Assembly: GCA_964607465.1 (NCBI GenBank)
Contig: CAZSKS010000006.1
Location: 5,773 to 69,772 of the forward strand
Direction of reading: 5' to 3'
Origin: an uncultured Gemmatimonadota bacterium
Lineage (GTDB): Bacteria; Gemmatimonadota; Gemmatimonadetes; Palauibacterales; Palauibacteraceae
DNA length: 64,000 bases
Shown: piece by piece, positions 16,356-44,969 of the stretch
How the letters are laid out: the number at the start of each line of letters is the position of its first letter
Position numbering within the stretch: the stretch's first letter is position 1
Position numbers and translations under genes: made by a program
Notes under the pieces: generated by a model
Told to the model about the DNA's origin: nothing
Database searches by the model: none
What the model saw: the letters and a program-made list of their open reading frames with translations, nothing else

Positions 16356-16401
16356 GGTCGCGACGAGACACGATCACGTACGGCACGGGCGGGAGCGCGG
16401 G

Positions 16402-31097: not shown

Positions 31098-31768
31098 GAC
31101 GGATCTCGGCCGTCCTCCTGCTGGCGGCCGCAGCCGCGGGGTGCGGGGAGGAGTCGGCCCCGGAGCCGGCCGGCCCGCAGTTCCAGCAGCTGGAGGCGGA
31201 CCAGGTCATGGTGGAGGTGGAGCATTACATGACGCGCGAAGGCGTCCGTCGGGCCCACCTGCAGGCCGACACGGTGTACTTCCTAGACGAGGGAGCCACG
31301 GCCCACCTTCGGCACTTCACGGTGGACTTCTTCGGCGAGGCGGGGGCGACGACGTCCGTGCTCAGCGCACGGGACGGCAGGTACCGCCTGCAGACCGGCG
31401 ACATGGAGGCCACCGAAGACGTGCGGGTCGTGGACGAGGACGAGTCCCAGCGGCTGTTCACCGAGCGCCTGATCTACGACTCGGAGACGGGCCGGCTTCG
31501 CAGCGACGTGGAGTTCGTGATGGTCCAGGGCAGGGACACGATCCGCGGGATCGGCTTCGTCACCGATCCGGGCCTCGATTCGCTGACGATCCAGCGTCCC
31601 GGCGCGGTGCTTCCGCCGACCGACACGGCCGGAGCAGGGGGGCGACCCGATGCCGGGGTCCCCGACACCGTGCAACCGGAGAGCCGGCCCGACACGGCCG
31701 ACGACGACGCGCGGGCGGGGGGGGCGGCCGGGACGACCGGATCCGCCCAGGTCCATCGGTCGGGCTGA
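31094..31768 (+). CDS. lptC: LptC-like lipopolysaccharide export component (lipobox-containing)
   Basis: GTG overlaps the kdsD stop (GTGA). VRRISAVLLLAAAAAGC lipobox-like N-terminus and an OstA-like beta-jellyroll-type sequence. Conserved position kdsD-kdsC-lptC-lptA-lptB. Confidence 0.6.
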   Translation: MRRISAVLLLAAAAAGCGEESAPEPAGPQFQQLEADQVMVEVEHYMTREGVRRAHLQADTVYFLDEGATAHLRHFTVDFFGEAGATTSVLSARDGRYRLQTGDMEATEDVRVVDEDESQRLFTERLIYDSETGRLRSDVEFVMVQGRDTIRGIGFVTDPGLDSLTIQRPGAVLPPTDTAGAGGRPDAGVPDTVQPESRPDTADDDARAGGAAGTTGSAQVHRSG

Positions 31769-31769
31769 C

Positions 31770-33431
31770 GTGCCCCGTACGGCCCGACGCGCGGGGGCCA
31801 CGACCGTGGCCGGGATGGCGTTGCTCGGCTCGCTGGTCCTTTCGGCCGGGGCGAGCGCGCAGCAGGGGGCGGAAGGGCGCGCGTGCACCCTGGTGCTGGA
31901 GCCCGCCACCGACTCCACGCGGAGCGTCCGGATCCAGGTGGAGACGAACCGCTACGTCACCCACGTGGGCAACGGGCTGCTGGCCACCTGCGGCGACGCC
32001 AGGATGAACTCGGACAGCGCGGTGAGCTACGGGGGCGAGCAGCGGGTGCGGATGATCGGATCGGTGGACTACCGCGACTCGGTGCGGACGCTGACCGCCG
32101 ACACGTTGACCTACTTCCAGGCCGAGGACCGGGTCCTGGCCGTGGGCGACGTGGTCCTCGTGCGCCGGGCCAGCGGCTCCCGCCTCGCCGGGCCGCGGGT
32201 GGAGTTCCAGCGGGTGAGGTCGCCCGAGGAGCGCCGCACGGTGGCCACCGGCCGGTCGCGGCTGGAGGTCTACTCCGATTCCGCCCCACGGGACACGGCG
32301 GCCGGGGACACCGCCTCGCCCGCGGTGGTGGACGCCGACCGGATCGTCATGCTCGGGGAGCGAGAGGTCCGCACCTGGGGGGACGTCAGGATTCGCCGCT
32401 CCGGAGCGGACGCCCGGGCCGACAGCGCCTTCTTCCGTACGGAGGCGGGCGCCGGCCGGCTGATGGGCTCGCCCCGGGTGGAGGGGGAGACGTTCACGCT
32501 GACGGGGGACACCATCTTCACGGGGTTCGAGGAGGGGGAGCTTCGCGACGTGGAATCGGTCGGCGAGGCCCGGGCCACCGGGGAGGACTTCGACCTCTAC
32601 TCGGAACGGATCCGGGGGCGGATGAGGGCGGAGGAGCTGGACCGGCTGTGGGCCTACGGCGCCGGGCGAGCGGTGGCCGTGTCGCCCCCCTACCGCCTGG
32701 CCGCCGATTCCCTCGATACCGCCTTCGCCGCAGGGGAGATGGACACCCTGTACGCGGTGGGGTCCGCCCGAGCGCTGGAGATCGGCGATCGACCGGCGGA
32801 AGATCCCCGCTCCGCCATCTCCCTGACGCCGGGCGAGCAGAGCTGGATCACCGGCGACTCGCTGGTCTTCTCCTTCGCCCGCCGGACGGCCGCTGCCCCG
32901 GTCGGCGGGGCCGACGGTGCGGCCGAGCCCGAGGCGGAGGCCCCTCCCGACAGCGTGGCGGCGGTCCCGGCGGGGGACGAGGGGACGGACGAGGCCGACG
33001 GACCGGCGGGTGAGCGGGAGACCCGCCTCGAGCGGGTCCGGGCGGCCGGCGACGCCCGGGCCTACCACGTTCTGAGAGGAGCGGACGACGACGGGGCGCC
33101 AGCCCGTGACTACCAGCTGGCCCGGGTCATCGAGATCTTCTTCGAGGACGGTGAGGTGGCACGCGTCGAGGGCCAGCAGGCCGTGGGCATCCACCTGGAT
33201 CCCATGGAGAGTGCGGACCGACCGGCGCCCACGCCGCCCGCCGACACGACGGAGGGGGGACGGCCCCCGGTCGACGCCCCGCCCGACACCGCGGGCGAGG
33301 CGCCCCCGGACACGTCAGGCGAAGCGACGCCGGATACGACGCGATACGAGCGGCCGAACTCGCCGGGCGGGGGCGACGTGTCCCCGGAGGGGAGGGGCGA
33401 CGTGTCCCCGGAGGGCGGGGAGCGGTCGTGA
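31770..33431 (+). CDS. OstA/LptA-like periplasmic protein, unusually long (553 aa) with a repeat-rich C-terminal tail
   Basis: GTG 31770, 2 nt after the lptC stop (alternative ATG 31815). Signal peptide ..[17 protein letters not shown]. Repeated OstA-like segments ([24 protein letters not shown].., [19 protein letters not shown]..). Positioned between lptC and lptB. Confidence 0.6.
33276..33347 (+). repeat. Three degenerate 24-nt (8-aa) tandem units in the lptA-like tail
   Basis: Encodes APPDTAGE / APPDTSGE / ATPDTTRY. The units have diverged at the DNA level. Confidence 0.6.
33371..33415 (+). repeat. Perfect 21-nt direct repeat with 24-nt period inside the lptA-like 3' end
   Basis: GGGCGACGTGTCCCCGGAGGG occurs at 33371-33391 and again at 33395-33415, encoding GDVSPEGR / GDVSPEGG. 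Confidence 0.95.
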
Positions 33432-34270
33432 CCGACGAGTTCCCTGAGGTGGAGATCGAGGGGCACCCGGAGGCCGAGGCCGAGGAGCCGTACCGGCCGG
33501 CGGGTCCCGGTGCGGACGAGCGGCCGCCGGCCAGGGCGGAAGGGCAGGGAAGCGTCCTGCGGGCGGAAGGCTTGGTCAAGGCCTTCAAGAAGCGCCGGGT
33601 CGTGGACGAAGTGGACCTGAGCCTGGGACAGGGCGAGATCGTGGGGCTCCTGGGACCGAACGGGGCCGGAAAGACCACCACCTTCTACATGATCGTCGGC
33701 CTCCTGCCGGCCGACCAGGGCCGGGTCTTCCTCGACGATCGTGAGCTCACCGACGTCCCCATGTACCGGCGGGCCCGGGAGGGCATCGGCTACCTTTCCC
33801 AGGAGCCGTCCATCTTCCGGAAGCTGACCGTGGAGGAGAACGTCATGGCCATCCTGGAGACGCTGGACCTCTCCAGGGAGGAGCGACGGGAGCGGCTCGA
33901 GGACCTGCTGGACGAACTCTCCATCAAGCACCTGCGGGACAGCAAGGCCTACGCTCTCTCCGGCGGCGAGCGGCGTCGCCTCGAGATCACCCGTGCCCTG
34001 GTCACCTCGCCCAAGTTCATGCTCCTCGACGAGCCCTTCGCCGGCGTCGACCCCATCGCGGTGGATGACATCCAGCGGATCGTGGCGGAGCTGCGCGACC
34101 GTGGGCTCGGCGTCCTCATCACCGACCACAACGTCCGGGAGACCCTCTCCATCACCGACCGGGCCTACATCATGTTCAACGGACGGATCCACATCGAGGG
34201 ACCCGCCGAAGCGCTGGTGAACGACCCCCAGGCTCGGAAGATGTACCTGGGACAGGACTTCCGCCTCTAG
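33428..34270 (+). CDS. lptB: LPS export ABC transporter ATP-binding protein
   Basis: Walker [10 protein letters not shown], signature LSGGERRR, Walker [10 protein letters not shown]. About 45-aa acidic N-terminal extension if GTG 33428 (GTGA overlap) is used. Confidence 0.88.
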
Positions 34271-34367: not shown

Positions 34368-34385
34368 TGGCATATATTTTGTGCA
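34368..34385 (+). promoter_or_regulatory. Sigma-54-like -24/-12 element (imperfect) in the AT-rich patch upstream of rpoN
   Basis: TGGCAT-ATATT-TTGTGCA versus the consensus TGGCAC-N5-TTGCW. The GG is at the correct spacing, but the -12 position reads GT instead of GC. About 100 nt upstream of the rpoN ATG. Confidence 0.25.
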
Positions 34386-34487: not shown

Positions 34488-35927
34488 ATGGCTCAGATGA
34501 AGAGCGGTCTCTCCCAAGAGACCAGCATGAAGCAGGAGATGAAGGTAAATCCTCGCCTGTACCAGGCGATGGACCTCCTGTACATGCCCCTCCTGGACCT
34601 GCAGCAGCACCTGAAGCAGGAGCTGACCGCCAATCCCTTCCTGGAGCTGGTGGAGCCGGGCGAGGAGGAGCTCGAGGAGCTGGACGAGCTGGAGGACGAG
34701 CTCGACGACGAGATCGACTGGGAGGAGATCCTCCTGGACGGCTTCGACGCCGGGGGACGGAAGGCCGAGTTCGAGGAGAAGGAGATCTACCGCCCCACCC
34801 CGTCCACCAGCGAGGACCTCTGGGACCACCTTCGGGACCAGCTCAAGCTGCAGCGCATCACGCCGCGCCAGCACCTCCTGGGTGAGGAGTTCATCGGCAA
34901 CATCGACCGCGACGGGTTCCTCACCTGCTCGGTGGAGGAGGTCGTGGAGGGTGTCAACGACTTCCTGGCGGACACGGACAACGAGGCCTGGGCGGACACC
35001 GAGCCCTTCAGCCTGGCGGAGGGTGAGCGGATGCTGGAGCTGGTGCAGACCTTCGAGCCCGCCGGGATCGGCGCCCGGGACCTGCGGGAGTCGCTGATGC
35101 TCCAGCTCGAGAGCCGTGAGGAGACGGAGACGCTGGCGTACCGCATCGTCCGGGATCACTTCGAGGAGCTGGTCAATCACCGCTGGAGCGAGCTCTCCAA
35201 GGAGCACGGCATCTCGCCCCAGGAGGTCCAGGCGGCGGCCGATCACGTGGCCAAGCTGGACCCGAAGCCGGGCCTGACCCACTCGGACGAGCAGGACGAC
35301 TACGTCACCCCCGACCTGATCGTCGACAAGATCGACGGCGACTACTACGTCTTCCACAACGACACGTCGCTGCCGCGCCTCAAGCTGTCCCGGGCCTACA
35401 AGGAGGTCGCCAAGGACAAGAACAAGTTCAAGGGCGACAACAAGGCCTTCATCTCCAAGAAGCTGAACAGCGCCCAGTGGATGATCCAGGCGATCGAGCA
35501 GCGCCGGCAGACGATGCTGAAGGTGATGAACTTCATCGTGGACCGTCAGCGCGAGTTCTTCGAGAAGGGGGTGGAGCACCTCAAGCCCCTGACGCTGCGT
35601 GAGGTGGCCGAGCACATCGACATGCACGAGTCCACGGTCTCGCGGGTGACGAACGAGAAGTACGCCCAGACCCCTCGGGGCGTGCTCTCCCTGAAGTTCT
35701 TCTTCTCCAGCGGGCTGTCGACGGACTACGGGGAGGAGGTTTCCGCCCGAGGCGTGCGGGCCAAGATCGAGAAGCTGGTGGAGGAGGAGGACTCCCACGA
35801 TCCGCTCACCGACCAGGCCATCGTGGACAAGCTGGAGGAGGACGGCGTCCAGATCGCGCGCCGCACGGTGGCCAAGTACCGCGACCAGCTGGGGATCCTC
35901 TCCGCCCGGATGCGCAAGAGGGTATGA
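34488..35927 (+). CDS. rpoN: RNA polymerase sigma-54 factor
   Basis: The N-terminal MKSGLSQETSMKQEMKVNPRLYQAMDLL aligns with region I. HESTVSRV HTH and the RpoN box ARRTVAKYR are present. The start could be ATG 34488 or 34497. Confidence 0.95.
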   Translation: MAQMKSGLSQETSMKQEMKVNPRLYQAMDLLYMPLLDLQQHLKQELTANPFLELVEPGEEELEELDELEDELDDEIDWEEILLDGFDAGGRKAEFEEKEIYRPTPSTSEDLWDHLRDQLKLQRITPRQHLLGEEFIGNIDRDGFLTCSVEEVVEGVNDFLADTDNEAWADTEPFSLAEGERMLELVQTFEPAGIGARDLRESLMLQLESREETETLAYRIVRDHFEELVNHRWSELSKEHGISPQEVQAAADHVAKLDPKPGLTHSDEQDDYVTPDLIVDKIDGDYYVFHNDTSLPRLKLSRAYKEVAKDKNKFKGDNKAFISKKLNSAQWMIQAIEQRRQTMLKVMNFIVDRQREFFEKGVEHLKPLTLREVAEHIDMHESTVSRVTNEKYAQTPRGVLSLKFFFSSGLSTDYGEEVSARGVRAKIEKLVEEEDSHDPLTDQAIVDKLEEDGVQIARRTVAKYRDQLGILSARMRKRV

Positions 35928-36970
35928 GCGGGGCGGGCTCCCCGCCGTCGACCCGGCCGGGGGCGCCTCCCGGGGCGGCCGACCCCGGACCCCGGATCTC
36001 GGTCCTCGTTCCCGCCTACGACGAAGCCCCCAACATGCCGGACCTGTTCCGGGAGATGGCCGGGGTCCTGCGGCGCGACGACCTGGACGCCGAGGTGGTC
36101 CTGGTGGACGACGGCTCGTCCGACGGGACCCTGGAGGCCGCCCGGGACGCGGCCCGAGCGGCGGGCCTGGAGGAGCGGGTCCGCCTGCTGCGCCACCGCA
36201 GGAACCGGGGCAAGACCGAGGCGATGCTGACGGCCGCCCACGCCGCCTCGGGCGACCTCCTCGTGCTCTTCGACGCCGACCTCCAGCACGCCCCGGAGGA
36301 GATTCCCCGCTTCGTGGAGCAGCTGGAGCGGGGCTTCGACGTGGTCGCCGGCCGCAAGGTGGGCCGGCGCTACTCGAAGCGATTCGTCTCGACCGTCTAC
36401 AACTGGCTGGCGCGCAAGATCTTCGGCGTCCCGGTCCACGACCTGAACGCGATGAAGGCCTTCCGGCGAGAGGTGCTGGAGGAGGTGCGGCTCCGCCACG
36501 ACTGGCACCGCTTCTTCGTGGTGCTGGCCTGGGCCCGGGGCTTCAGCGTCACCGAGATCGACGTGGAGCTGCTGCCCCGGCGTCACGGGGAGTCGAAGTA
36601 CCGGGGCCAGGGACGCATCCTGGTGGGCACGCTGGACCTGATCTCCGTCTGGTTCCAGCTCCTGTTCAGCCGGAAGCCGATGCTGCTGTTCGGCGTCTCC
36701 GGGCTGGGCCTGTTCGCCCTGGGGGGCGTCGTCGGGCTCGTGGCGGTCTACCTCCGATTCGTGCTGCAGCAGGGCTACCGTCCCCTCCTCAACCTCGTGC
36801 TGCTGCTGGTGGTCGTGGGGCTCCTCCTCTTCGCCGTCGGCTTCCTGGCCGAGCTCCTGGCCTCGGTCCGGGCCGAGGTGGAGGAGCTCCGCCATCGGGT
36901 CGACCGGGAGATCGGCGGTCGAAGCTCGACGGGTGGGGACGAGGGCTCCGACGGCGGGTCCGGAGGATGA
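35924..36970 (+). CDS. GT2 polyprenyl-phosphate glycosyltransferase (GtrB/ArnC/DPM-like, two C-terminal TM helices)
   Basis: ATG overlaps the rpoN stop (ATGA). ISVLVPAYDE, VLVDDGSSDGT and LFDADLQH GT-A motifs. C-terminal hydrophobic helices LLFGVSGLGLFALGGVVGLVAV and LVLLLVVVGLLLFAVGFLAELL. Confidence 0.8.
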   Translation: MSGAGSPPSTRPGAPPGAADPGPRISVLVPAYDEAPNMPDLFREMAGVLRRDDLDAEVVLVDDGSSDGTLEAARDAARAAGLEERVRLLRHRRNRGKTEAMLTAAHAASGDLLVLFDADLQHAPEEIPRFVEQLERGFDVVAGRKVGRRYSKRFVSTVYNWLARKIFGVPVHDLNAMKAFRREVLEEVRLRHDWHRFFVVLAWARGFSVTEIDVELLPRRHGESKYRGQGRILVGTLDLISVWFQLLFSRKPMLLFGVSGLGLFALGGVVGLVAVYLRFVLQQGYRPLLNLVLLLVVVGLLLFAVGFLAELLASVRAEVEELRHRVDREIGGRSSTGGDEGSDGGSGG

Positions 36971-36986
36971 GGGCCGACCGGGCGGC

Positions 36987-38690
36987 ATGACCGAGGGGAG
37001 GCTCACCGGGGAGGAAGTCTCCACGGCCTGGGGGTGGCCGGTCCGGCGGTGGATCCTCCTGGCCGGCGCCCTCCACGTGGTCGTGGGCCTCCTCCTCTAC
37101 GATCCCACCCTCTTCACCGGCGGGGACAACGCCGGCTACATGATCCTGGGGGAGGCCCTGCGCACCGGCGAGGGCTACCGGGACCTCCACCTGCCGGGCT
37201 CCCCGGTCCACACGAAGTATCCTCCCCTCTACCCGGCGCTGCTGGCGGTGCTGGGGTGGGCCGGGGGGCTCCAGCTCTTCAAGCTGGCCTCCCTGGCCCT
37301 GACCAGCGGCGCCGTGCTGGTGGTCGGGTTCCTGGGGCGACGGTGGTTGGGACCGCGTCTGGGGATCGCGGCGGCCCTCCTCGTCGCGGTCAACCCGGTG
37401 CTCGTCTCCTATTCCCACTGGGTCCTCTCGGAAGCTCCCTTCGTCTTCCTCGTCCTCCTCTCCCTGTACGCCTTCGAGCGGAGCCGGCCGTCTTCCGAGC
37501 CCGATCCGGCCGGCTCGCCCCGCCGCGGCTCCCGGGACGCCTGGAGCTGGACGGCCCTGGCCGCCGCCGTGGGCGCCTTCCTGACCCGGACGGCGGGCCT
37601 TCCCCTCCTGGCGGCGGCGGTGCTCCATCCGGCCCTCGCCCGCCGGTGGCGCCGTGCGGGGTGGCATCTGGCGGCGGCGGTGACGGCGGCGGCCGGGTGG
37701 GCCGTGTTCCAGCGGCTCGGGGCCCCCGACCAGGCGGGTTACCTGTCGGAGCTCCTCATGGTGAACCCCTACGATCCCGAGGCGGGACGCGTCGGCGCGG
37801 CGGGGCTCTTCGGCCGGACGGCGGAGAACTTCTGGCGCTACGCCTCCGAGGTGCTGCCGCTTTCGGTGACGGGAGGACGGGGGGACGCCGGGGGCGCCGG
37901 AACCCTGGCCGGCGCGGGAGGGCTCCTCCTGGCGGGCTTCGCGGCCGCCGGCTGGCTGCGCCGGAGCCTGGAGGGGCTGGGTCCGTCCGAGCTGTTCCTG
38001 TTCCTGTACCTGGGCCTGATCTGCGCCTGGCCGTCGGTGTGGACCGACCGGCGGTTCCTGTTGCCGGCCCTCCCCCTGCTGCTGCTGTACGGCCTGGAGG
38101 GCGGGCGTCTCGCAGGCCGGGCCCTGGTGGGGGGGCAGGTGCGGGGGCAGGACGGGGGGGAGGGCTGGCGGAGCCTGGCCCGGGCGGGCGTGCCCGGGTT
38201 GCTGGCGGCGGCCCTCCTGGTGCCCGGGCTGCTGGACGCCGCCCGCTCGGCGCCGGACCGCATGAGGTGTCTGGCCGGCTGGCGGAGCGGGTCGCCGTGC
38301 GTCCCGCCGGCCTACGCCCGCTTCTACGCAGCGGCCGAGTGGGTGGAGGGGAACACCGCCGGGGACGCGGTGGTCGTGAACCGGAAGCCGCGCCTCTTCT
38401 ACTGGCTCTCCGGGCGGCAGGGGGACCTCTATCCCTATTCCTCGGAGCCGTCGGTGGTGCTGGAGGCCATCGAGGCGATGGGGGCGGAGTACGTCGTCGT
38501 CGACGCGATCTCGGGGACCACGGCCCGCTACCTGGTGCCGGCGATCGAGGCCCATCCCTCGCGCTTCGTGGTCCTCCACCGCGAGGAGGGTCCTCCCACC
38601 TGGGTCCTCCGGTTCCGCCGGGAGCCCGGCACGGCCCGGGCCGGGCCGCCCGAGCCGGGAGCCCGCCGGGCGGGGCGAGGGACCCCGTGA
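36987..38690 (+). CDS. Polytopic membrane protein, putative GT-C glycosyltransferase (ArnT/PMT-like)
   Basis: 567 aa, at least 8 predicted TM segments. First-loop GGDNAGYMILGEALRTGEGY..KYPPLYPALLAVLG resembles ArnT/GT39-type proteins. The family assignment is tentative. Confidence 0.5.
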   Translation: MTEGRLTGEEVSTAWGWPVRRWILLAGALHVVVGLLLYDPTLFTGGDNAGYMILGEALRTGEGYRDLHLPGSPVHTKYPPLYPALLAVLGWAGGLQLFKLASLALTSGAVLVVGFLGRRWLGPRLGIAAALLVAVNPVLVSYSHWVLSEAPFVFLVLLSLYAFERSRPSSEPDPAGSPRRGSRDAWSWTALAAAVGAFLTRTAGLPLLAAAVLHPALARRWRRAGWHLAAAVTAAAGWAVFQRLGAPDQAGYLSELLMVNPYDPEAGRVGAAGLFGRTAENFWRYASEVLPLSVTGGRGDAGGAGTLAGAGGLLLAGFAAAGWLRRSLEGLGPSELFLFLYLGLICAWPSVWTDRRFLLPALPLLLLYGLEGGRLAGRALVGGQVRGQDGGEGWRSLARAGVPGLLAAALLVPGLLDAARSAPDRMRCLAGWRSGSPCVPPAYARFYAAAEWVEGNTAGDAVVVNRKPRLFYWLSGRQGDLYPYSSEPSVVLEAIEAMGAEYVVVDAISGTTARYLVPAIEAHPSRFVVLHREEGPPTWVLRFRREPGTARAGPPEPGARRAGRGTP

Positions 38691-39952
38691 GGGTCGTCCA
38701 CGTGGCGACGGCCTTCCCCCGCGACGGGGAGGACGTCATCACCCCCTGGCTGGTGGAGATGATCCGGCGGTCCCGGGAGCGGGGGATCGAGGCCGAGGTG
38801 CTGACCTCCTCCTACCGGGGCTCGGGGGACCACCGGCTGTCCGGCATCCCGGTGCGCCGCTTCCGGTACGCCCCGTCCGCCTGGGAGACGCTCACCCACG
38901 ACGAGACGGCTCCCGACCGGGTGCGGCGCTCACCCCTCCACGCGGCCCTGGTCCCCCTCTACCTGGCCGGCGGGTGCGCCGCCGCCTGGCGGATGGGCCG
39001 GGACGCGCCGGACCTGGTCCACGTCCACTGGCCCGTGCCCCACGCGCTGTTCGGGGCGGCCATGCGGACCGCGTCGAGCGGGCGGACGGCCCTGGTGTGC
39101 AGCTACTACGCGGTGGAGGTGAACTGGGTGCTCCACCGGATGCGCTGGCTCCGGCCCTTCCTCCGGTGGTCGGCCAGGACGGCCGACGCCGTCACGGCCA
39201 TCTCCACGTCGACGGCCGACGCCGTCCGGAAGGTGTCCGGACGCGACCCCAGGATCGTCCCGTTCGCCGCCGCGCTGGGGGAGGAGGAGGCGACGGGTCC
39301 GGGCGGGACGGGCCGGGTTCCCCTCGCGTCGTCGGGTCCCCTCCGGCTGCTCTTCGTGGGGAGGCTGGTGGAGCGGAAGGGGATCGAGGTGCTGGTGCGG
39401 GCCCTGCCGCGCCTCCTGGAGGAACGGGACGTCCGGCTCACCGTCGTGGGCGAGGGCGAGCGGGAGGCGTCCCTTCGGGCGACCGCCCGCGACGCCGGGG
39501 TGGAGGATCGGGTGGAATTCACCGGGTTCGTGTCCCGGGAGGAGCTGTCGCGGCGATACGCCTCGTGCGACATGTTCGTGCTCCCCGCCGTGGTGGACCG
39601 GAAGGGCGACACCGAGGGGCTCGGCGTGGTCCTGCTGGAGGCGCTCCGGCACGAGCGTCCCGTCGTGGCCAGCCGCGCGGGCGGGATCACCGACATCGTG
39701 GAGGACGGCCGGACGGGCTGGCTCGTCCCGCCGGGGGACCCGGCCGCGCTGGCCCGGCGGATCCTGGACGTGGCCGGGCGCCCCGACGACGCGCGCCGGG
39801 TGGCCCGCCGGGGAAGGGAGGTGGTGGAGGAGCGCTTCGGCTGGGAGCGGATCCTGGAGGGGCTCGGCGCCGCCTACCGGGAAGCCCGGGAAGCCCGTCG
39901 GTCGGCCCGGAGAGCGGACGGCGCGCAGGGACGGGAGGACGACGCGGCATGA
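38687..39952 (+). CDS. GT4 (group 1) glycosyltransferase
   Basis: GTG overlaps the upstream stop (GTGA). The C-terminal EGLGVVLLEALRHERPVVASRAGGITDIVEDGRTGWLV is the EX7E motif of GT-B retaining transferases. Confidence 0.85.
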   Translation: MRVVHVATAFPRDGEDVITPWLVEMIRRSRERGIEAEVLTSSYRGSGDHRLSGIPVRRFRYAPSAWETLTHDETAPDRVRRSPLHAALVPLYLAGGCAAAWRMGRDAPDLVHVHWPVPHALFGAAMRTASSGRTALVCSYYAVEVNWVLHRMRWLRPFLRWSARTADAVTAISTSTADAVRKVSGRDPRIVPFAAALGEEEATGPGGTGRVPLASSGPLRLLFVGRLVERKGIEVLVRALPRLLEERDVRLTVVGEGEREASLRATARDAGVEDRVEFTGFVSREELSRRYASCDMFVLPAVVDRKGDTEGLGVVLLEALRHERPVVASRAGGITDIVEDGRTGWLVPPGDPAALARRILDVAGRPDDARRVARRGREVVEERFGWERILEGLGAAYREAREARRSARRADGAQGREDDAA

Positions 39953-40746
39953 CCGGGGACGACCGGTACGAGGCGTGGGTGGCGTCGGAGGCCTACCGGC
40001 GCGAGCGTCCGGAGAAGGCCCGCGTGATCCACCGGCTGTGCCGCGAGGAGCTGCGGGCGGCGGACCGGATCGCGGACCTGGGGTCCGGTACGGGAATCAT
40101 CAAGAAGGAGCTCGAGACGATCACGGGCAAGACCATCACCGGCATAGAGTTGGACACGTCCTTCGTCGAGACGCGGGAGCGGACGGCGGCGGGCGACGTG
40201 ACCCGTCTGCCCCTGGCCGACGGCGTGCTCGACTTCGCCATCCTGAACCACCTGTACGAGCACGTGGGGGATCAGCCGGCGCTCTTCCGTGAAGTCCACC
40301 GGGTGCTCACTCCCGGAGGCGCGGCTTACGTGTCCGCAGGGAACCGGCTCATGGTCATGGAGCCCCATTACCGCCTCCCCTTCCTGAGCTGGCTGCCCCG
40401 GCCGCTGGCGGACCGCTACCTGAGGTGGACGGGGCGGGGAAGGGCCTACCGCGGGATCCGCTTCCGCACCCGGGGCGAGCTCGTTCGGATGATCCGGGAC
40501 GCCGGGCTCCGGATCGAGGACCGGACCCGCCGGGCGCTGGACGACATGCTCGAGGAGGCGTGGGGACCGGGATGGAGCGTCCTCTGGCGGACGATGCGCG
40601 GCCTGCCCGATCCCCTGGTGGAGGCCGGGCTGCGGTGGCTGTCCCCCCAGTGGTTCCTCCTCCTCCGCAGGCCCGCCGACCGCTCCCTGGCCGCCGGGGC
40701 GTCGTCGGACGGACGGGCGGCCGCGGGCCGGGAGGCGCGAACGTGA
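39949..40746 (+). CDS. Class I SAM-dependent methyltransferase
   Basis: ATG overlaps the GT4 stop (ATGA). Motif I IADLGSGTGI, with LDFAILNHLYEHV and LTPGGAAYVS following. Confidence 0.8.
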   Translation: MTGDDRYEAWVASEAYRRERPEKARVIHRLCREELRAADRIADLGSGTGIIKKELETITGKTITGIELDTSFVETRERTAAGDVTRLPLADGVLDFAILNHLYEHVGDQPALFREVHRVLTPGGAAYVSAGNRLMVMEPHYRLPFLSWLPRPLADRYLRWTGRGRAYRGIRFRTRGELVRMIRDAGLRIEDRTRRALDDMLEEAWGPGWSVLWRTMRGLPDPLVEAGLRWLSPQWFLLLRRPADRSLAAGASSDGRAAAGREART

Positions 40747-43154
40747 TCGGGGGCGAGCGGCTGCGGGAGCTCGGTCGCCGGGGGCCGTCCCTCGGGGTGG
40801 TCACGGCGTCGTGCGCCGTGCTGGCGGCGCTCTTCTTCGCGGAGTTCGTCTTCCAGCCGGGCCGCATGCTCTTCGGCACGGACATGCTGGACCAGGCCTA
40901 TCAGCTACGGGCCTTCGGCGTGGAGGAGGTCCGATCCGGGCACGGACTGCCGCTGTGGAACCCCTTCGTCTACGGCGGGCTGCCGTACCTGGCCGTCCTG
41001 CCGGGGCCGGCCTTCTACCCGACCAGCCTCCTGTACCTGGTCCTGCCGCTCTTCCGGGCCATCGGCTGGACCTTCGTCCTCCACACGGCCCTGGCCGGGG
41101 TGCTGGGCTACGCGGCGGGCCGGGCGTTCCGGCTCCGGCGGTGGGCAGCGGCGACGGTGGGGGTGGCCTTCATGTTCACCGGTTACGTCGTCTCCCACCT
41201 CTACGGCGGGCACGACGGCCGGATGTTCGCGATGATGCTCATCCCGGGCGTCTTCGCCTGTGCCGAGCGGGGGCTGCAGGACGACGAGGCGGGCTGGTTC
41301 CTGGCCATGGGCCTGCTGGTCGCGCTCCAGATCTTCACGCCTCACACCCAGCTCATGTACTTCTCCTCGCTGGCGGTGAGCCTCTACGTCGCCTGGCGCC
41401 TGGGGCTCCGGGCGATGGAGGGCCGGGACGAACGGGCCGCGGCCCTCCGCACGGGCGGCTGGTTCGCCCTGGGTTTCCTGGCGGCCGCCCTGCTGGGCGC
41501 GGTCCAGCTGCTGCCGACCCTGGGCCTCCTGGACGACGCCGTCCGCGGGGCGGGGCAGGGCGGCTACGAGTTCGCCGCCTCCTGGGCACTCCCGCCCCAG
41601 GAGCTGACGGCCTTCTTCCTCCCCGACCTCGTGGGATCCCTGCAGGAGCATTACTGGGGCTCCAACTCCTTCAAGCTCCACACGGAGTACCTGGGCGCGG
41701 TCACGCTGGCCCTGGCGTCCGTCGGCTTCCTGACGCCCCGGGGCGACCGCAGGATCTGGTTCCTCTCCGGGGCCACGCTCCTGGGGATCGCCTTCTCGCT
41801 GGGCGATGCCACCCCGGTCCATCGGATCGCCTACGAGATCGTCCCGATGATCGACCGGTTCCGGGCGCCCAACATGATGACCGGGCCCGTGGCCTTCTTC
41901 GTGGCGCTGGCGGCCGGCTTCGGGGTCCAGCGGGTGCTGGAGGCCCGGGAGGCCGGGGCGTCGGACGACCCGGGCCCGGGCGGCTCGGAGCGGCAGGCGA
42001 GGGACGGGGCGGCGCGGGGCGTCCCGATCCGGTGGCCCGCGGTGTGGGCGTTCGCCGCCCCCTTTCTCCTGCTGGCGGCGTGGGCGGCCTTCTCCCCGGA
42101 GGGCCTGCAGCGCTGGGTCCGAAACGCCTGGTACCCGGCCGGCTGGCCCCGCCAGCCGTCGGCCGAGCTGGCCGGGATGCTCCGGACGACGGGGGCGCTG
42201 GTGGCGCTCCTGTGGGCCGGGAGCCTGGCGACGCTGCAGGCCGTCGAGCGCCGACGTCTCCCGCGCTGGATGCTGGGCGGCGTGCTGGTGCTCCTGATCT
42301 TCGACCTGTGGCGGGTGGACGCCCGGTATCTGGAGACCGTGGACCCGGACCGTGTCTTCCGCGCCGACCCGGTGGTGGAGCGGATGCGGTCGGATCTCCG
42401 GCCCGGCGAGCGGGTCTGGCAGCTGGAGAACAGCTACGGGGCCAACGAGCTCATGTACTGGGGCATCCCGTCGGTCACCGGGAGCCAGAACTTCCGGCTG
42501 GCCTGGTACGACCGGCTCACGGGAGGCGTGGGGCACCGGGCGCTCCTGGAGAGCCCGGTGGTGTGGCCGCTCCTGGACCTCCGCTACGTGACGACCCGCT
42601 CCCGGGTGCAGACCGGCCTCCTCGAGGAGGTGACCCGGCACGAGGGCACCACGCTGTACGAGGTCGTCCCGAACCTCCCCCACGCCTTCTTCCCCCGCCG
42701 GGTGGAGGGCGTCGAGGGGCTGGACGAGGCGGTGCGACGGACGCGCGGGCTCGACGATCCGGCCGCGGCGGCGGTGGTCCGGACGCCGGCGACCGGGGAG
42801 CTGCCCTCCGCCGGGCGGGGCACGGCCCGTCTCGAGACCTGGCGGCCCGACGAGGTGGTCCTGGACGTGGAGGCGGCGCGGGGAGGCCTCCTCTTCGTCA
42901 GCGAGGTCTGGCATCCGGGCTGGCGGGCCACGGTGGACGGCGAGGAGGTGCCGATCCACCGGACCAACGCCGCCTTCCGCGGCGTCGAGGTGCCGGAGGG
43001 CCGGCACGAGGTGCGGATGACCTACGGATCGACGACGCTGTGGATCGGCGGTGCCGCCTCGGGGCTGGCGCTCCTGCTGGTCCTGGGCGGGATGGCCTGG
43101 CGGATCCGCCGCGGACGGATGACGCTGGACGCCGGGGCCGGGGAGGCGGAATGA
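40743..43154 (+). CDS. YfhO-like polytopic membrane protein (putative GT-C glycosyltransferase)
   Basis: GTG overlaps the methyltransferase stop (GTGA). 803 aa, many TM helices. GLPLWNPFVYGGLPYLA matches the WNP....G.P motif I associate with the YfhO family. Large C-terminal extracytoplasmic domain and a terminal TM helix. Confidence 0.65.
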   Translation: MIGGERLRELGRRGPSLGVVTASCAVLAALFFAEFVFQPGRMLFGTDMLDQAYQLRAFGVEEVRSGHGLPLWNPFVYGGLPYLAVLPGPAFYPTSLLYLVLPLFRAIGWTFVLHTALAGVLGYAAGRAFRLRRWAAATVGVAFMFTGYVVSHLYGGHDGRMFAMMLIPGVFACAERGLQDDEAGWFLAMGLLVALQIFTPHTQLMYFSSLAVSLYVAWRLGLRAMEGRDERAAALRTGGWFALGFLAAALLGAVQLLPTLGLLDDAVRGAGQGGYEFAASWALPPQELTAFFLPDLVGSLQEHYWGSNSFKLHTEYLGAVTLALASVGFLTPRGDRRIWFLSGATLLGIAFSLGDATPVHRIAYEIVPMIDRFRAPNMMTGPVAFFVALAAGFGVQRVLEAREAGASDDPGPGGSERQARDGAARGVPIRWPAVWAFAAPFLLLAAWAAFSPEGLQRWVRNAWYPAGWPRQPSAELAGMLRTTGALVALLWAGSLATLQAVERRRLPRWMLGGVLVLLIFDLWRVDARYLETVDPDRVFRADPVVERMRSDLRPGERVWQLENSYGANELMYWGIPSVTGSQNFRLAWYDRLTGGVGHRALLESPVVWPLLDLRYVTTRSRVQTGLLEEVTRHEGTTLYEVVPNLPHAFFPRRVEGVEGLDEAVRRTRGLDDPAAAAVVRTPATGELPSAGRGTARLETWRPDEVVLDVEAARGGLLFVSEVWHPGWRATVDGEEVPIHRTNAAFRGVEVPEGRHEVRMTYGSTTLWIGGAASGLALLLVLGGMAWRIRRGRMTLDAGAGEAE

Positions 43155-43170
43155 GAGGAGGGGCGGACCG

Positions 43171-44151
43171 GTGAGCCGCCGGTGGCGTCGGCTCCTCGTC
43201 GTCCTCTTCCTGGGGGCGGCCCTCGTCTTCGTCGGCGTCGCCCTGGCGGAGCGCTGGGAGGAGCTGCGGGCCATCCGCTCGCAGGTCGGCGGTTTCGGGT
43301 GGCGTCTGGCCCCCGGCTGGCTGGCGGCCTCGCTGGTCGTGGCGACCGTGAACCTCTTCTGGATGGCCGGCGTCTGGGTCTATCTCTACCGCTCCGGGGG
43401 CGGCGGGCTGGGCTACCCCCGGGGCGTCCGCGTGTGGATGGCGACCAACCTGGGCCGCTACATCCCCGGCAAGGTGTGGCAGATTTCCGGCCTGGCGGTC
43501 CACCTCCGGCAGACGGGCGAGTCCGGCGCGCTGGCGCTGGGATCGGCGCTGGCCTTCCAGGTCGTCACTCTCCTCACGGGGCTGGCCGCCGGCCTGGCCG
43601 TCGTCGGCGCCCGCCCGGGCGTCCTGCCCGGGGGCTCGGCCCTCACGGCCGCCCTCGTGGTCGTCGCCCTCCTGGCCCTCCTCCACCCGTCGGTGGTGGG
43701 GAAGGGGATGGAGCTCACCGGCCGGCTCCTTCGCGAGGAGATCCCCGCCGTCGATCCTCCCGAAGGCCGCGCATTGGCGGCGGCCGCCGTGGGGATGCTG
43801 GCCGCCTGGGGCATGTACGGTCTCGGGCTCTGGTGCTTCCTGCGTGGCGTCACGGGGCGGGAGGTGGCCGACCCCGCGGTCCTCACCGGGGTCTTCGCGG
43901 CCAGCTACGTGGCGGGCTACCTGGTCCTCGTGGCGCCCGGAGGGCTGGTCGTCCGGGAGGGCGCCATGACGGGTCTCCTGGTGGCCGTGGCTCCGGTGGG
44001 AGCGGCCGTGGCGGCGGCGCTGGCAATCCTGGCCCGCGTCTGGGTGACGGCCTCGGAGCTGGCCGGGCTCGGCCTGTCCTTCCTGGTGCCCGGCGTGCCC
44101 GGCGAGGTCGAGCCGGAGACCGGGCCGGACCGCCATGAGGCGTCCCGATGA
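43171..44151 (+). CDS. UPF0104 / lysylphosphatidylglycerol-synthase-TM-like (flippase-like) membrane protein
   Basis: 326 aa, about 8 TM helices. NLGRYIPGKVWQ and APGGLVVREG motifs typical of the LPG_synthase_TM/UPF0104 family. Confidence 0.65.
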   Translation: MSRRWRRLLVVLFLGAALVFVGVALAERWEELRAIRSQVGGFGWRLAPGWLAASLVVATVNLFWMAGVWVYLYRSGGGGLGYPRGVRVWMATNLGRYIPGKVWQISGLAVHLRQTGESGALALGSALAFQVVTLLTGLAAGLAVVGARPGVLPGGSALTAALVVVALLALLHPSVVGKGMELTGRLLREEIPAVDPPEGRALAAAAVGMLAAWGMYGLGLWCFLRGVTGREVADPAVLTGVFAASYVAGYLVLVAPGGLVVREGAMTGLLVAVAPVGAAVAAALAILARVWVTASELAGLGLSFLVPGVPGEVEPETGPDRHEASR

Positions 44152-44969
44152 CGGGCCCGGGCGCGACGCGGCCGGGAGGGGGAGGCGGGTCCCCCGGGAA
44201 CGCGACGGGGGAGGGCGAGGGGGCCGTGCCGCCGGAGGAGCGCGGCCGCGGCGAGGGACGGGCCCTGGTCATCATGCCCACCTACAACGAGGTCGAGAAC
44301 CTGGGGAAGATCGTCCCCGAGGTGCTGAACCGGGACCGGAGGATCGACGTCCTGGTGGTGGACGACGGCTCCCCGGACGGCACCGGCGAGCTCGCCGACG
44401 AGATCGCCTCGCGCGAGGAGCGGGTCCGGGTGCTGCATCGGGGCGGGAAGCTGGGACTGGGGTCGGCGTACCTGACCGGCTTCCGCTGGGGGCTCGATCG
44501 GAGCTACCGGTGGCTCCTGGAGATGGACGCGGACTTCTCACACGACCCCGAGTTCCTGCCGGACCTCCTGGAGGCCGTGCGGGAAGCCCACGTGGTGGCC
44601 GGGTCCCGCTACCTGAAGGGGGTGAACGTCGTCAACTGGCCCATGTCCCGTCTCCTCCTCAGCTACTACGCGAACAAGTACGCCCGATGGGTCACCGGAC
44701 TCCCGGTGACGGACGCCACCAGCGGCTTCAAGTGCTTCCGCCGGGAGGTCCTCGAGGCCATCGACTTCTCGCGCGTCACCTCTACCGGCTACGCCTTCCA
44801 GATCGAGATGAGCTTCCGGGCCTGGAAGAAGGGGTTCCGGGTGAAGGAGGTACCCATCGTTTTCGTCGACCGGGACGTCGGAGAGAGCAAGATGTCCGGT
44901 GCCATCGTCCGGGAAGCGGTGTGGAAGGTGTGGGCCCTGAGGCTGAAATCGCTCCTGGGACGCCTCTGA
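44148..44969 (+). CDS. Polyprenol-monophosphomannose synthase (Ppm1/DPM1-type GT2)
   Basis: ATG overlaps the upstream stop (ATGA). LVIMPTYNEVENL, LVVDDGSPDGT, EMDADFSHDP and TDATSGFKCFRREVLE are strongly DPM1/Ppm1-like. No TM helix. Confidence 0.85.
   Translation: MTGPGATRPGGGGGSPGNATGEGEGAVPPEERGRGEGRALVIMPTYNEVENLGKIVPEVLNRDRRIDVLVVDDGSPDGTGELADEIASREERVRVLHRGGKLGLGSAYLTGFRWGLDRSYRWLLEMDADFSHDPEFLPDLLEAVREAHVVAGSRYLKGVNVVNWPMSRLLLSYYANKYARWVTGLPVTDATSGFKCFRREVLEAIDFSRVTSTGYAFQIEMSFRAWKKGFRVKEVPIVFVDRDVGESKMSGAIVREAVWKVWALRLKSLLGRL

Follow-up and report, generated by a model that had tools for sequence, protein, structure and literature searches.

What does a set of glycosylation genes do directly behind the gene of a sigma factor, and to which acceptor would its products attach their sugars? 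The question is raised by a 64-kb stretch of DNA from an uncultured Gemmatimonadota bacterium (the window, by which we mean the whole stretch analysed). In it rpoN, the gene for sigma-54, is followed directly on its 3' side by seven intact plus-strand genes, here called g1 to g7. An original prediction, made from the nucleotide sequence, had described them as an extracytoplasmic glycosylation cluster coupled to rpoN. Extracytoplasmic glycosylation by means of polyprenyl-phosphate sugars and GT-C enzymes is already known, and the chemistry is not new. To our knowledge, glycosylation has never been shown in Gemmatimonadota, and full-text literature searches found neither this cassette nor an rpoN-glycosyltransferase operon described in the phylum. 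Our analysis indicates that the rpoN-headed operon very probably encodes lipid-carrier-dependent glycosylation on the periplasmic face of the inner membrane. For the full statement, in which the operon would serve the periplasmic glycosylation of protein tails carrying Asp-(Ser/Thr)-hydrophobic motifs, we would put the probability at about 0.4.

Results

Seven genes follow rpoN without a break

The DNA is approximately 72% G+C, which makes raw lists of open reading frames useless, and coding was followed instead through the G+C content of third codon positions (GC3). The GC3 frame plot shows a single unbroken coding run on the plus strand from 34488 to 44969, with the frame switching exactly at the gene boundaries. 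Reading the junctions after rpoN directly from the sequence gives five 4-nt overlaps and two 16-nt gaps, just as the original prediction had it. The stop codon of rpoN and the start codon of g1 share the letters ATGA (35924-35927), and the g2/g3, g3/g4, g4/g5 and g6/g7 overlaps are GTGA (at 38687), ATGA (at 39949), GTGA (at 40743) and ATGA (at 44148), respectively. The first gap lies between the TGA of g1 (36968-36970) and the ATG of g2 (36987); the second, between g5 and g6 (43155-43170), contains a GAGGAGG ribosome-binding site. The seven genes are packed so tightly that there is no space for internal promoters.

The families of the encoded proteins

Families were called through hidden Markov model (HMM) searches with curated cutoffs (Pfam, NCBIfam) and sequence searches against solved structures (PDB). 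The calls, which are given with the coordinates in Table 1, agree with those of the original prediction for all seven genes.

Two of the products, g1 and g7, are assigned on their sequences to the class of polyprenyl-phosphate sugar synthases. The matches of g1 to ArnC (8vxh, 113 bits) and to GtrB (sll0501) are full-length and include the transmembrane (TM) part, and the protein has DDG and DAD motifs of the DXD kind and two C-terminal hydrophobic helices at about residues 252-319. For g7 the best solved match is the catalytic domain of the Pyrococcus furiosus dolichyl-phosphate-mannose synthase (5mlz, 116 bits, E 1.8e-32, residues 39-263), and the protein has no TM segment. The translations therefore show what had been foreseen of both proteins, two C-terminal TM helices in g1 and a soluble g7, and also the 803-residue length of the YfhO-like g5. 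The curated models closest to the two synthases score far below their cutoffs. For g1 these are ArnC (124.8 bits against an equivalog cutoff of 529) and PgfS (103 bits); for g7 they are AglJ (62.8 bits, cutoff 325) and a halophile dolichyl-phosphate-hexose transferase (59.8 bits, cutoff 375).

The solved structures closest to g3 are BshA (2jjm) and PimB' (3oka), the latter aligned over nearly the full length. A match of g3 to the Pfam family 'GT4-conflict' was dismissed as cross-family similarity, as its score was far below those of the general GT4 models. Among solved structures g4 finds generic methyltransferases only.

The PF03706 match of g6 spans residues 12-290 of 326 and there are approximately eight hydrophobic segments. 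The DUF2156 domain of lysyl-phosphatidylglycerol synthases is not present in the protein, and a search for homologues found stand-alone orthologues only, with no glycosyltransferase fusions. UPF0104 is the flippase domain of MprF, and in Euryarchaeota it is fused to a GT-A domain in AglD, with PMT- or STT3-like GT-C genes as neighbours. Since g6 overlaps g7, the two may be read as a split AglD-like unit; in relatives (see below) the gap between them is within 30 nt in 47 of 64 loci. Neither the seven genes nor the other called genes of the window include a flippase of the GtrA/GtcA, ArnE/F or Wzx type, which leaves g6 as the sole flippase candidate, and there are no homologues of ArnA, ArnB, ArnD, ArnE or ArnF in the window.

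Table 1. Coordinates of the glycosylation unit, of the promoter-like element and of the upstream neighbours discussed in the text (positions in the window).
Feature	Position	Strand	Basis and remarks
rpoN (sigma-54), first gene of the conserved unit	34488..35927	+	TIGR02395 436 bits (cutoff 277); Sigma54 AID, CBD and DBD domains
g1, membrane-anchored GT2, ArnC/GtrB-type polyprenyl-phosphate sugar synthase (predicted)	35924..36970	+	PF00535 102.7 bits
g2, ArnT/PMT_2-like GT-C, accessory	36987..38690	+	PF02366 26.0 bits (cutoff 22.7), marginal
g3, cytoplasmic GT4 (GT-B)	38687..39952	+	PF13692 139.5 bits, PF00534 137 bits; EX7E motif
g4, class I S-adenosylmethionine (SAM) methyltransferase, accessory	39949..40746	+	PF08241, PF13489; DLGSGTG motif
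g5, YfhO-family GT-C, 803 aa	40743..43154	+	PF09586 54.3 bits (cutoff 28.5)
g6, UPF0104/PplT protein (MprF flippase domain, LPG_synthase_TM)	43171..44151	+	PF03706 48.4 bits (cutoff 33.4)
g7, soluble DPM1/Ppm1/AglD-type GT2, polyprenyl-phosphate hexose synthase (predicted), last conserved gene	44148..44969	+	PF00535 112.5 bits
sigma-54-type -24/-12 promoter-like element	34368..34382	+	TGGCATATATTTTGT; coincides with the sole AT-rich patch between lptB and rpoN, about 105 nt ahead of the rpoN start codon
lptC (lipoprotein), candidate substrate	31094..31768	+	TIGR04409 52.6 bits (cutoff 38); lipobox; Pro/Asp/Thr-rich C-terminal tail
Secreted 538-aa protein in the LptA position, candidate substrate	31815..33431	+	signal peptide; C-terminal D-T-x repeats at about 33204-33428
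lptB, upstream neighbour, context outside the glycosylation unit	33428..34270	+	ABC_tran; 74-90% identical in related loci

The two large membrane proteins are predicted to have the fold of GT-C enzymes

For g2, g5 and g6 no usable match to a solved structure came out of the sequence searches, and the structures of g2 and g5 were therefore predicted with AlphaFold2 (AF2) from alignments of their homologues and compared with the PDB using Foldseek. The models have a pLDDT of 88.9 for g2 and 89.1 for g5, and at E below 1e-3 both match GT-C structures exclusively. The matches of g5 are AftD (6w98, E 2e-9), ArnT, PglB, AglB, STT3, EmbB and Pmt1. For g2, ArnT (5f15) comes first, with an E of 6e-9 and TM-scores of 0.54/0.57, and is followed by STT3, AglB, ALG12/9, DPY19 and AftA. 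Asp47, on the first periplasmic loop of g2, is kept by all 37 of 37 homologues, and position 47 of g5, on its first extracytoplasmic loop, is Asp or Glu in 36 of 36, with Asp158, Arg160 and Glu175 also invariant. The acidic loop residue of both proteins is approximately 10 residues beyond the first TM helix, which is about where the catalytic aspartate of GT-C enzymes is placed. On the evidence of these models g5 and g2 are GT-C glycosyltransferases, as the original prediction had supposed of its two polytopic proteins. The outcome that it had named as a refutation, a structure or HMM analysis placing the two outside the GT-C enzymes, was not obtained.

While above the cutoff of PF02366, g2 stays below that of PF13231 (20.2 bits against 26.1), a family that many of its homologues do carry; there is no MIR domain match in g2, and its model shows a small alpha/beta periplasmic domain. 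The PF09586 match of g5, for which nearly all its homologues have a precomputed equivalent, is limited to C-terminal residues 696-769 (model positions 757-831). The protein, whose sequence includes LWNPFVYGGLPY, has a beta-rich periplasmic domain at its C-terminus, followed by a final TM anchor.

With these assignments in hand, the original view of the cluster as two copies of a three-component scheme of synthase, flippase and GT-C enzyme can be kept in part. There are indeed two synthases and two GT-C enzymes; there is only one flippase-like protein, with no GtrA or ArnE/F, and about a fifth of the clusters in relatives do without g2.

The arrangement is conserved in Gemmatimonadota

A scan of one genome per species gave 80 related loci, against which all proteins of the window were searched with tblastn. 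All are from Gemmatimonadota except for four labelled 'uncultured bacterium' (L005, L009, L011 and L040) and one from a bin assigned to Akkermansiaceae. The homologues found with g5, g2 and g6 belong to uncultured Gemmatimonadota, namely the 'marine benthic group', Palauibacter, Benthicola and Carthagonibacter. The Akkermansiaceae locus (L078, CAXMRU010000289.1) is a 2.7-kb contig with homologues of g3, g4 and g5 at 52-66% identity, and as all other taxonomically labelled matches are Gemmatimonadota its assignment is probably a binning error.

The exact order lptB-rpoN-g1-g2-g3-g4-g5-g6-g7 is seen in 23 loci. Nine loci of a Palauibacter type have g3 ahead of g2 and g4 shifted behind g7, and g2 is missing from about 11 loci, which yet keep both GT2 synthases; the rest of the non-standard loci are cut by contig ends. 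The methyltransferase is missing from about 10 loci, absent or relocated in about 19, and replaced by an Epimerase_2 protein in L085 and an NAD-dependent epimerase in L088. The constant set is rpoN, g1, g3, g5, g6 and g7, and the recurrence of one gene order across dozens of related genomes goes far beyond chance. The genes that come after g7 vary (histidine kinases, Na/H exchangers, an ion channel, DUF5916/CBM9, PilX), and because they differ between lineages and are unrelated to glycosylation we place the 3' boundary of the unit at g7. One Gemmatimonadota locus (L018) has a PTS_EIIA_2 domain fused to a Na+/H+ exchanger (15366-17075) right after the cluster.

The join to rpoN is the most faithful feature of all. 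Wherever a locus has both genes and real upstream sequence, rpoN is directly upstream of g1 (61 of 61), and in 56 of these (92%) the two share a 4-nt overlap, compared with 45-75% at the junctions within the cluster; rpoN-g1 is thus its best conserved junction. The original prediction had suggested examining synteny with rpoN in related genomes, and the coupling seen there is much stronger than could be told from the one sequence. An apparent exception (L019, CP070670.1), in which rpoN seemed to be lacking, was rejected on account of a scaffold join of 100 N at 8955-9054. This join lies directly upstream of the g4 homologue in a metagenome-assembled genome deposited as a complete chromosome, and mimics the loss of rpoN, g1, g2 and g3.

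A divergent rpoN-linked locus, L085, bears on the age of the arrangement. Its YfhO protein shares only 33% identity with g5; rpoN and lptB are 65% and 81% identical. The order is nonetheless LptC, LptA-position protein, LptB, rpoN, GT2, PMT_2, UDP-N-acetylglucosamine (UDP-GlcNAc) 2-epimerase, GT4, YfhO, PplT and GT2, with an ATGA overlap between rpoN and the first GT2 gene and the epimerase in the place of the methyltransferase. Because L085 keeps both the order and the overlap at such low YfhO identity, the arrangement of rpoN with the glycosylation genes is judged to be old.

The core of the cassette is found without rpoN in other lineages

A profile built on g5 was run against 1.84 billion representative proteins and found 12,568 relatives at E below 1e-30. 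The scores begin with a few orthologues and then drop to a large set of full-length proteins of approximately 800 residues. We examined six of these neighbourhoods, among them L083 with a fusion protein (see below), and none but L085 shows rpoN. L084 has GT4, a methyltransferase, PplT, YfhO, UbiA, DUF362, two GT2 genes and further genes ending in PTS_EIIA_2; a primary sigma factor of 289 residues and a tail domain of type IX secretion are encoded on the same contig. Four more are L086 (GT4, a gene without a family, YfhO, PplT, GT2 and Bac_transf), L087 (murA, GT4, YfhO, GT2 and cmk), L088 (PMT_2 fused to TPR repeats, GT2, GT4, PplT, YfhO, an NAD-dependent epimerase and GT2) and L089 (PplT and YfhO at a contig end). 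A GT4 gene adjoins this YfhO subfamily in all five of the more distant relatives examined whose contig is long enough to show the neighbour. The evolutionary core, which also occurs without rpoN, is a GT4, a YfhO protein and a soluble GT2, usually with a flippase-like protein. The cluster of the window is the fullest form of this widespread and uncharacterised cassette, and the linkage to rpoN is specific to Gemmatimonadota. In L084 the UbiA-family prenyltransferase and DUF362 protein between YfhO and the two GT2 genes (11418-13373) recall the polyprenyl-phosphoribose route of three-component systems for pentofuranoses.

In some relatives the enzymes are joined in one chain. PMT_2-YfhO fusions of 1209-1289 residues make up six clusters at 50% identity (P0421, P0432, P0448, P0465, P0482 and P0497), from which we infer that the two types of GT-C enzyme act together. 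BLASTP detects no closeness of their N-terminal PMT_2 part to g2, so that the fusions support an association of the two enzyme types and not of g2 and g5 themselves. Around P0421 (L083) no other gene of the cassette is present, the neighbours being unrelated genes and a sigma-70 factor of 284 residues. A methyltransferase-YfhO fusion equivalent to g4 plus g5 (P0110, 1040 residues, L082 3482-6604) is present as a called gene on a single metagenome contig. Either the fusion is genuine or one indel at the GTGA overlap has created it, and as evidence it is weak.

A proposed pathway across the inner membrane

In the pathway that we propose, g1 and g7 would load sugars from nucleotide sugars onto polyprenyl phosphate at the cytoplasmic side of the membrane, g3 would extend the lipid-linked intermediate and g4 would methylate it. 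The lipid-linked glycan would be carried across by g6, which probably acts with g7 as a split AglD, the archaeal protein in which GT-A and UPF0104 are fused. On the other side g5 and g2 would transfer the sugars to a periplasmic acceptor, making use of the conserved acidic residue of the first periplasmic loop. The constant GT4 and the frequent methyltransferase or epimerase suggest that a lipid-linked disaccharide or a modified sugar is made before flipping. Alternatively the GT4 may make a glycolipid acceptor, as GpgS does beside the UPF0104 protein GpgF in Pseudomonas aeruginosa. The acceptor itself would be Ser or Thr in Asp-(Ser/Thr)-hydrophobic motifs of disordered periplasmic tails, such as those of LptC and of the protein in the LptA position, in a general O-glycosylation resembling that of the sister phylum Bacteroidota. 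Expression would be tied to sigma-54, possibly through a sigma-54-type promoter ahead of rpoN.

Tails of the neighbouring Lpt proteins are candidate acceptors

The tails of LptC and of the LptA-position protein are disordered, with repeats in which an Asp directly precedes a Ser or Thr that is itself followed by a hydrophobic residue or Thr. In LptC the translation reads PPTDTAG...VPDTVQ...RPDTAD. The 538-residue protein has no match in Pfam, NCBIfam or the PDB, is 28-55% identical across the clade and may be a very divergent and enlarged LptA. Homologous tails differ in their repeat unit, which may be ADSAAV, PPDTL, RPDSTGA, EDTTS, PDSLP or, in L085, DSATAPADSLIDAATDTTAVDSA.

For 28 lineages the motif was counted in the tail of the LptA-position protein (2,405 residues in all) and compared with the expectation from composition. 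D-[ST] is observed 90 times where 28.5 are expected, a threefold excess, and in 73 of the 90 the next residue is A, I, L, V, M or T. There are 19 cases of the reverse, [ST]-D, and 25 of E-[ST] (27 expected). Across approximately 1.4 Mb of related loci, dense D-[ST] repeats are almost confined to the LptA-position protein, the LptC-like gene that precedes it and a single TPR_21 protein; within the window the LptA-position protein alone has them.

The general O-glycosylation of Bacteroidota takes place at the motif D-(S/T)-(A/I/L/V/M/T) (PMC8550257, PMC12871550). Both Bacteroidota and Gemmatimonadota are members of the Fibrobacteres-Chlorobi-Bacteroidetes (FCB) group. The acceptors of YfhO-type enzymes in known systems are polymers or Ser/Thr-rich disordered regions of proteins, the latter being glycosylated in extracytoplasmic proteins by the streptococcal YfhO-family enzymes PgtC2 and PgfM1 (PMC12041528). 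The original prediction, which had drawn on teichoic-acid glycosylation for YfhO, was right as to teichoic acids and has to be widened to include proteins. The fusion of PMT_2 to TPR repeats in the L088 cassette is also in favour of a protein acceptor. Because the tails of LptC and of the LptA-position protein are enriched threefold, and directionally, in Asp-Ser/Thr-hydrophobic, periplasmic proteins are our leading acceptor hypothesis, which we hold tentatively and at rather less than even odds.

A number of points weigh against it. Several lineages (L032, L045, L051 and L072) keep the cluster and have Pro/Glu-rich tails without the motif. Since the motif was counted within repeats and among related genomes, the counts are not independent events; the sample consists of neighbouring genes, approximately 20 per genome, and says nothing on specificity for exported proteins. 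The link of the cluster to any acceptor is circumstantial, and a different system, encoded in another part of the genome, could act on the motif-rich tails. The current model for Bacteroidota assumes that the glycans are assembled on an undecaprenyl carrier and flipped by proteins of the Wzx type, for which a gene is lacking here. The enzyme at the top of the structural matches of g2, ArnT, acts on lipid A, and classical YfhO enzymes act on teichoic acids. Finally, we infer the sugars, the order of the steps and the cargo of g6, and co-transcription with rpoN is deduced from the overlaps only.

The ArnT match brings in another possible acceptor, the lipopolysaccharide (LPS). The same pathway would then decorate LPS, the GT-C enzymes adding sugars to lipid A phosphates or to the 3-deoxy-D-manno-octulosonic acid (Kdo)/core region on the periplasmic face before the Lpt machinery takes over, with the GT4 as a cytoplasmic core glycosyltransferase. 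It would by analogy resemble ArnC/ArnT, which transfer 4-amino-4-deoxy-L-arabinose (L-Ara4N), LgmA/LgmB (glucosamine) or RgtA-E of Rhizobium (galacturonic acid), lipid A and core systems that use the scheme of a polyprenyl-phosphate sugar and a GT-C enzyme. Besides ArnT as the first structural match of g2, the first sequence matches of g1 are to ArnC structures and the ArnC model, and kdsB-pyrG-kdsA and kdsD-lptC-?-lptB lie upstream of the cluster in the same orientation, a context conserved in relatives. However, the score of g1 is less than a quarter of the ArnC equivalog cutoff, and genes of the arnA, arnB and arnD type are absent from the window. The adjacency of lptB and rpoN is generic in bacteria and is uninformative on what comes downstream, and while rpoN and g1 overlap, lptB and rpoN are separated by 217 nt that contain the promoter-like element. 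The original prediction had pointed to the Kdo/Lpt genes upstream, and these are indeed there; with such a spacer in between they are weaker evidence for LPS. The core cassette also occurs in other lineages without Kdo or Lpt genes nearby, and we know of no YfhO enzyme that acts on LPS. Decoration of LPS seems to us unlikely.

The constancy of the GT4 could, on the other hand, point to a glycolipid or lipoglycan. Here g3 would make a glycosylated membrane lipid at the cytoplasmic face, g4 would methylate it, g6 would flip it and the GT-C enzymes would extend it outside with the polyprenyl-phosphate sugars of g1 and g7, much as in mycobacterial lipomannan and lipoarabinomannan. GT4 enzymes with such roles are GpgS, which makes GlcNAc-phosphatidylglycerol, and PimA and PimB', which make phosphatidylinositol mannosides. 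GT4 is the most faithful neighbour of the YfhO subfamily, and it is PimB' with which g3 aligns over nearly its full length. In the literature the sole demonstrated class of cargo for PplT/MprF domains is a phospholipid with a modified head group, PplT-GT-B fusions are described from several phyla, and a P. aeruginosa operon of a GT4, a deacetylase and a UPF0104 protein makes glucosaminyl-phosphatidylglycerol (PMC12713373). Against this, g3 scores 70.7 bits on the GlcNAc-phosphatidylglycerol synthase model (cutoff 480) and matches BshA and exopolysaccharide GT4 enzymes equally well. In most loci g6 is tied physically to g5 and g7 and not to g3, and neither a deacetylase nor an acyltransferase is present. 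We know of no lipoglycan reported for Gemmatimonadota, although this is an absence of data. We regard a glycolipid product as distinctly improbable.

A sigma-54-type element lies ahead of rpoN

The consensus of sigma-54 promoters is TGGCAC-N5-TTGC, and we scanned for the pattern [TC]GG[CT]A[CT]-N5-T[TC]G[CT]. Counting both strands, the whole window has only three copies, one of them being the element between lptB and rpoN (Table 1). Related spacers, of which the median length is 125 nt, carry TGGTACGATTCTTGT, TGGCACAAGCCTTGC, CGGCACCCGAATTGC and similar sequences 79-161 nt from the rpoN start codon; examples are L002, L004, L018, L022, L029, L040, L045, L048, L054, L057, L063, L064, L069 and L074, among others. 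Between lptB and rpoN the pattern has a density of 2.39 per kb (present in 20 of 56 loci), against 0.045 per kb over all loci and both strands, an enrichment of about 50-fold. Most copies have TTGT and not the consensus TTGC at -12, and the pattern is lacking in approximately 60% of the spacers. If real, the element suggests that sigma-54 autoregulates rpoN together with the glycosylation genes.

There is nearly an even chance that the linkage to rpoN has no regulatory meaning, a matter that is orthogonal to that of the acceptor. The glycosylation genes would then just be carried along with a constitutive housekeeping transcript, fixed at an early stage of this lineage, and the element would be, for example, a promoter of the sigma-70 or an FCB type. 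The substitution of the -12 C in most copies and the presence of the pattern in only about 40% of spacers fit with this, as do the occurrence of the core cassette without rpoN in other lineages, the commonness of 4-nt overlaps across a compact high-GC genome and the lack of an enhancer-binding protein gene among the called genes of the window. It is less easily reconciled with an rpoN-g1 overlap that is kept so much more often than the internal ones, and that persists where the cluster proteins fall to 33% identity, or with the enrichment of the element in exactly this spacer and at that distance from the start codon.

A consensus scan found no sigma-70-type promoter, and terminator-like matches fall within coding sequence. 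There is no hairpin after g7 or before rpoN, and an Rfam scan of the window found no RNA family.

The surrounding genes

The window is otherwise ordinary chromosome, with nuo genes, a phosphogluco/phosphomannomutase, UPF0182, sucCD, ndk, fabD-fabG-acpP-fabF, ispF, a DedA/VTT protein and a nitroreductase, and then kdsB-pyrG-kdsA, kdsD, lptC, the 538-residue protein, lptB and rpoN. On the 3' side of g7 are convergent genes for a TPR_21 protein, a phosphoribosyltransferase, pcm, surE, a merR-family gene, gpsA and der. As the original prediction had noted, hpf, ptsN and rapZ are not among the called genes of the window. The DedA/VTT-domain membrane protein (22392-23033) is 13 kb and the phosphogluco/phosphomannomutase (9878-11443) 25 kb upstream of the cluster. 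The DedA/VTT family is implicated in the recycling of undecaprenyl phosphate, and though unlinked to the cluster the two genes could supply carrier lipid and sugar precursors.

Discussion

The enzyme types of the cluster are known from other systems. In the CsbB/GtcA/YfhO systems for lipoteichoic and wall teichoic acids of Bacillus, Staphylococcus and Listeria, and in the GtrB/PgtC2 and PgfS/PgfM1 systems of streptococcal protein O-glycosylation, a membrane-anchored GT2 is likewise combined with a YfhO-family GT-C enzyme that acts outside. The PgfS score of g1 and the matches of g5 to the PgfM1, PgfM2 and YfhO models reflect this. However, the match of g5 to the Pfam YfhO model is limited to 75 residues at its C-terminus, and the scores of the protein on PgfM1 (25.8 bits, cutoff 1400) and PgfM2 (22.5 bits, cutoff 1500) are far too low for equivalogs. 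The host here is an FCB-group diderm, a PplT/UPF0104 protein takes the place of the GtrA/GtcA flippase, and the cluster adds a GT4, a methyltransferase, a second synthase and a second GT-C enzyme and is joined to rpoN. On these comparisons g5 is classed as a distant YfhO subfamily with a constant GT4 neighbour, with no orthology to YfhO of B. subtilis, to PgfM1/M2 or to PgtC2.

With ArnC/ArnEF/ArnT, which modify lipid A with L-Ara4N, the cluster shares the full-length match of g1 to ArnC, the best structural match of g2 and an LPS-related genomic context. It differs in its lack of ArnA, B, D, E and F homologues, in the low ArnC score of g1 and in the dispensability of g2, and an identity with ArnC/ArnT was rejected on the scores below curated cutoffs and the missing partner genes.

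The soluble DPM1-type synthase g7 and the PMT-family enzyme g2 are shared with Ppm1/Pmt of Actinobacteria and DPM1/PMT of eukaryotes, and the candidate targets are again Pro/Thr-rich disordered tails. Here, though, the PMT match of g2 is marginal and without MIR, there is no partner like Ppm2/Lnt and a YfhO enzyme is additional.

The Agl pathway of Haloferax volcanii (AglJ, AglG/I/E, AglP and AglB; AglD, AglR and AglS) contains, like the cluster, a membrane GT2 acting on a polyprenyl monophosphate, cytoplasmic glycosyltransferases, a SAM methyltransferase and two GT-C enzymes. It also has a second dolichyl-phosphate-hexose synthase linked to a UPF0104 domain, in the AglD fusion, and in archaea UPF0104 and AglD-like glycosyltransferase genes are neighbours of PMT- or STT3-like GT-C genes. 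The AglJ model is matched by g1 and g7 at 68 and 63 bits, far below its cutoff. The host here is bacterial, GT-A and UPF0104 are separate genes in the reverse order, and there is no transferase of the STT3/AglB type.

GpgS/GpgD/GpgF, which make glucosaminyl-phosphatidylglycerol in P. aeruginosa, resemble the cluster in having a GT4 and a UPF0104 flippase-like protein in one operon. The deacetylase has no equivalent here, g3 is not an orthologue judging by its score, and GT-C enzymes and polyprenyl-phosphate synthases are present in addition.

The closest parallel for the acceptor is the O-glycosylation of Bacteroidota, where the three-residue motif in periplasmic tails beside the cluster, the superphylum and a YfhO-family GT-C enzyme are shared, the last as a likeness at the family level only. 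Methylated sugars and a core that begins with mannose are described for that system. The window has no locus of the lfg type and no Wzx gene, and while in Bacteroides yfhO is found beside sahH or luxS (2026 preprint), here it is beside rpoN-linked genes.

Lastly, the proteobacterial rpoN operon (lptB-rpoN-hpf-ptsN-rapZ-npr) has in common with the window lptC, an LptA-position gene, lptB and rpoN in series on one strand. Here glycosylation genes, and not hpf, ptsN and rapZ, come after rpoN, and PTS_EIIA_2 is met only at the far end of two loci, L018 and the rpoN-less cassette of L084 (a PtsN-like domain at 16116-16568). These occurrences may be a leftover of the classical rpoN-ptsN neighbourhood. 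As all the equivalog scores are far below their cutoffs, the cluster is not, on sequence comparison, orthologous to any characterised system.

What is new is a conserved cassette that joins YfhO-type and PMT_2-type GT-C enzymes, two donor synthases, a GT4, a modifying enzyme and an MprF-type flippase domain in unstudied diderms, together with its ancient and almost invariant coupling, predicted to be translational, to the sigma-54 gene, where it replaces hpf-ptsN-rapZ. To this are added a sigma-54-type element ahead of rpoN and an enrichment of the Bacteroidota motif in the tails of the neighbouring Lpt proteins. In Bacteroidota the pathway has been likened to eukaryotic O-mannosylation, and the enzymes of the core glycan, the core flippase and the transferase, sought for more than 15 years, are unidentified; only lately has YfhO been proposed in silico as the transferase (preprint of 27 July 2026). 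A bolder version of our reading, which we think doubtful, is that the cassette is the complete core pathway of motif-directed protein O-glycosylation in the FCB group. The DPM1-type synthase, with or without the membrane GT2, would provide the first sugar, the GT4 would add the second and a methyltransferase or epimerase would modify it. PplT would flip the product and YfhO, with PMT_2, would transfer it at Asp-Ser/Thr-hydrophobic sites. In Gemmatimonadota the pathway would be wired to sigma-54, with periplasmic components of the LPS transport bridge among its targets. If this were true, the cassette would name candidates for the transferase, the flippase and the core-glycan enzymes together.

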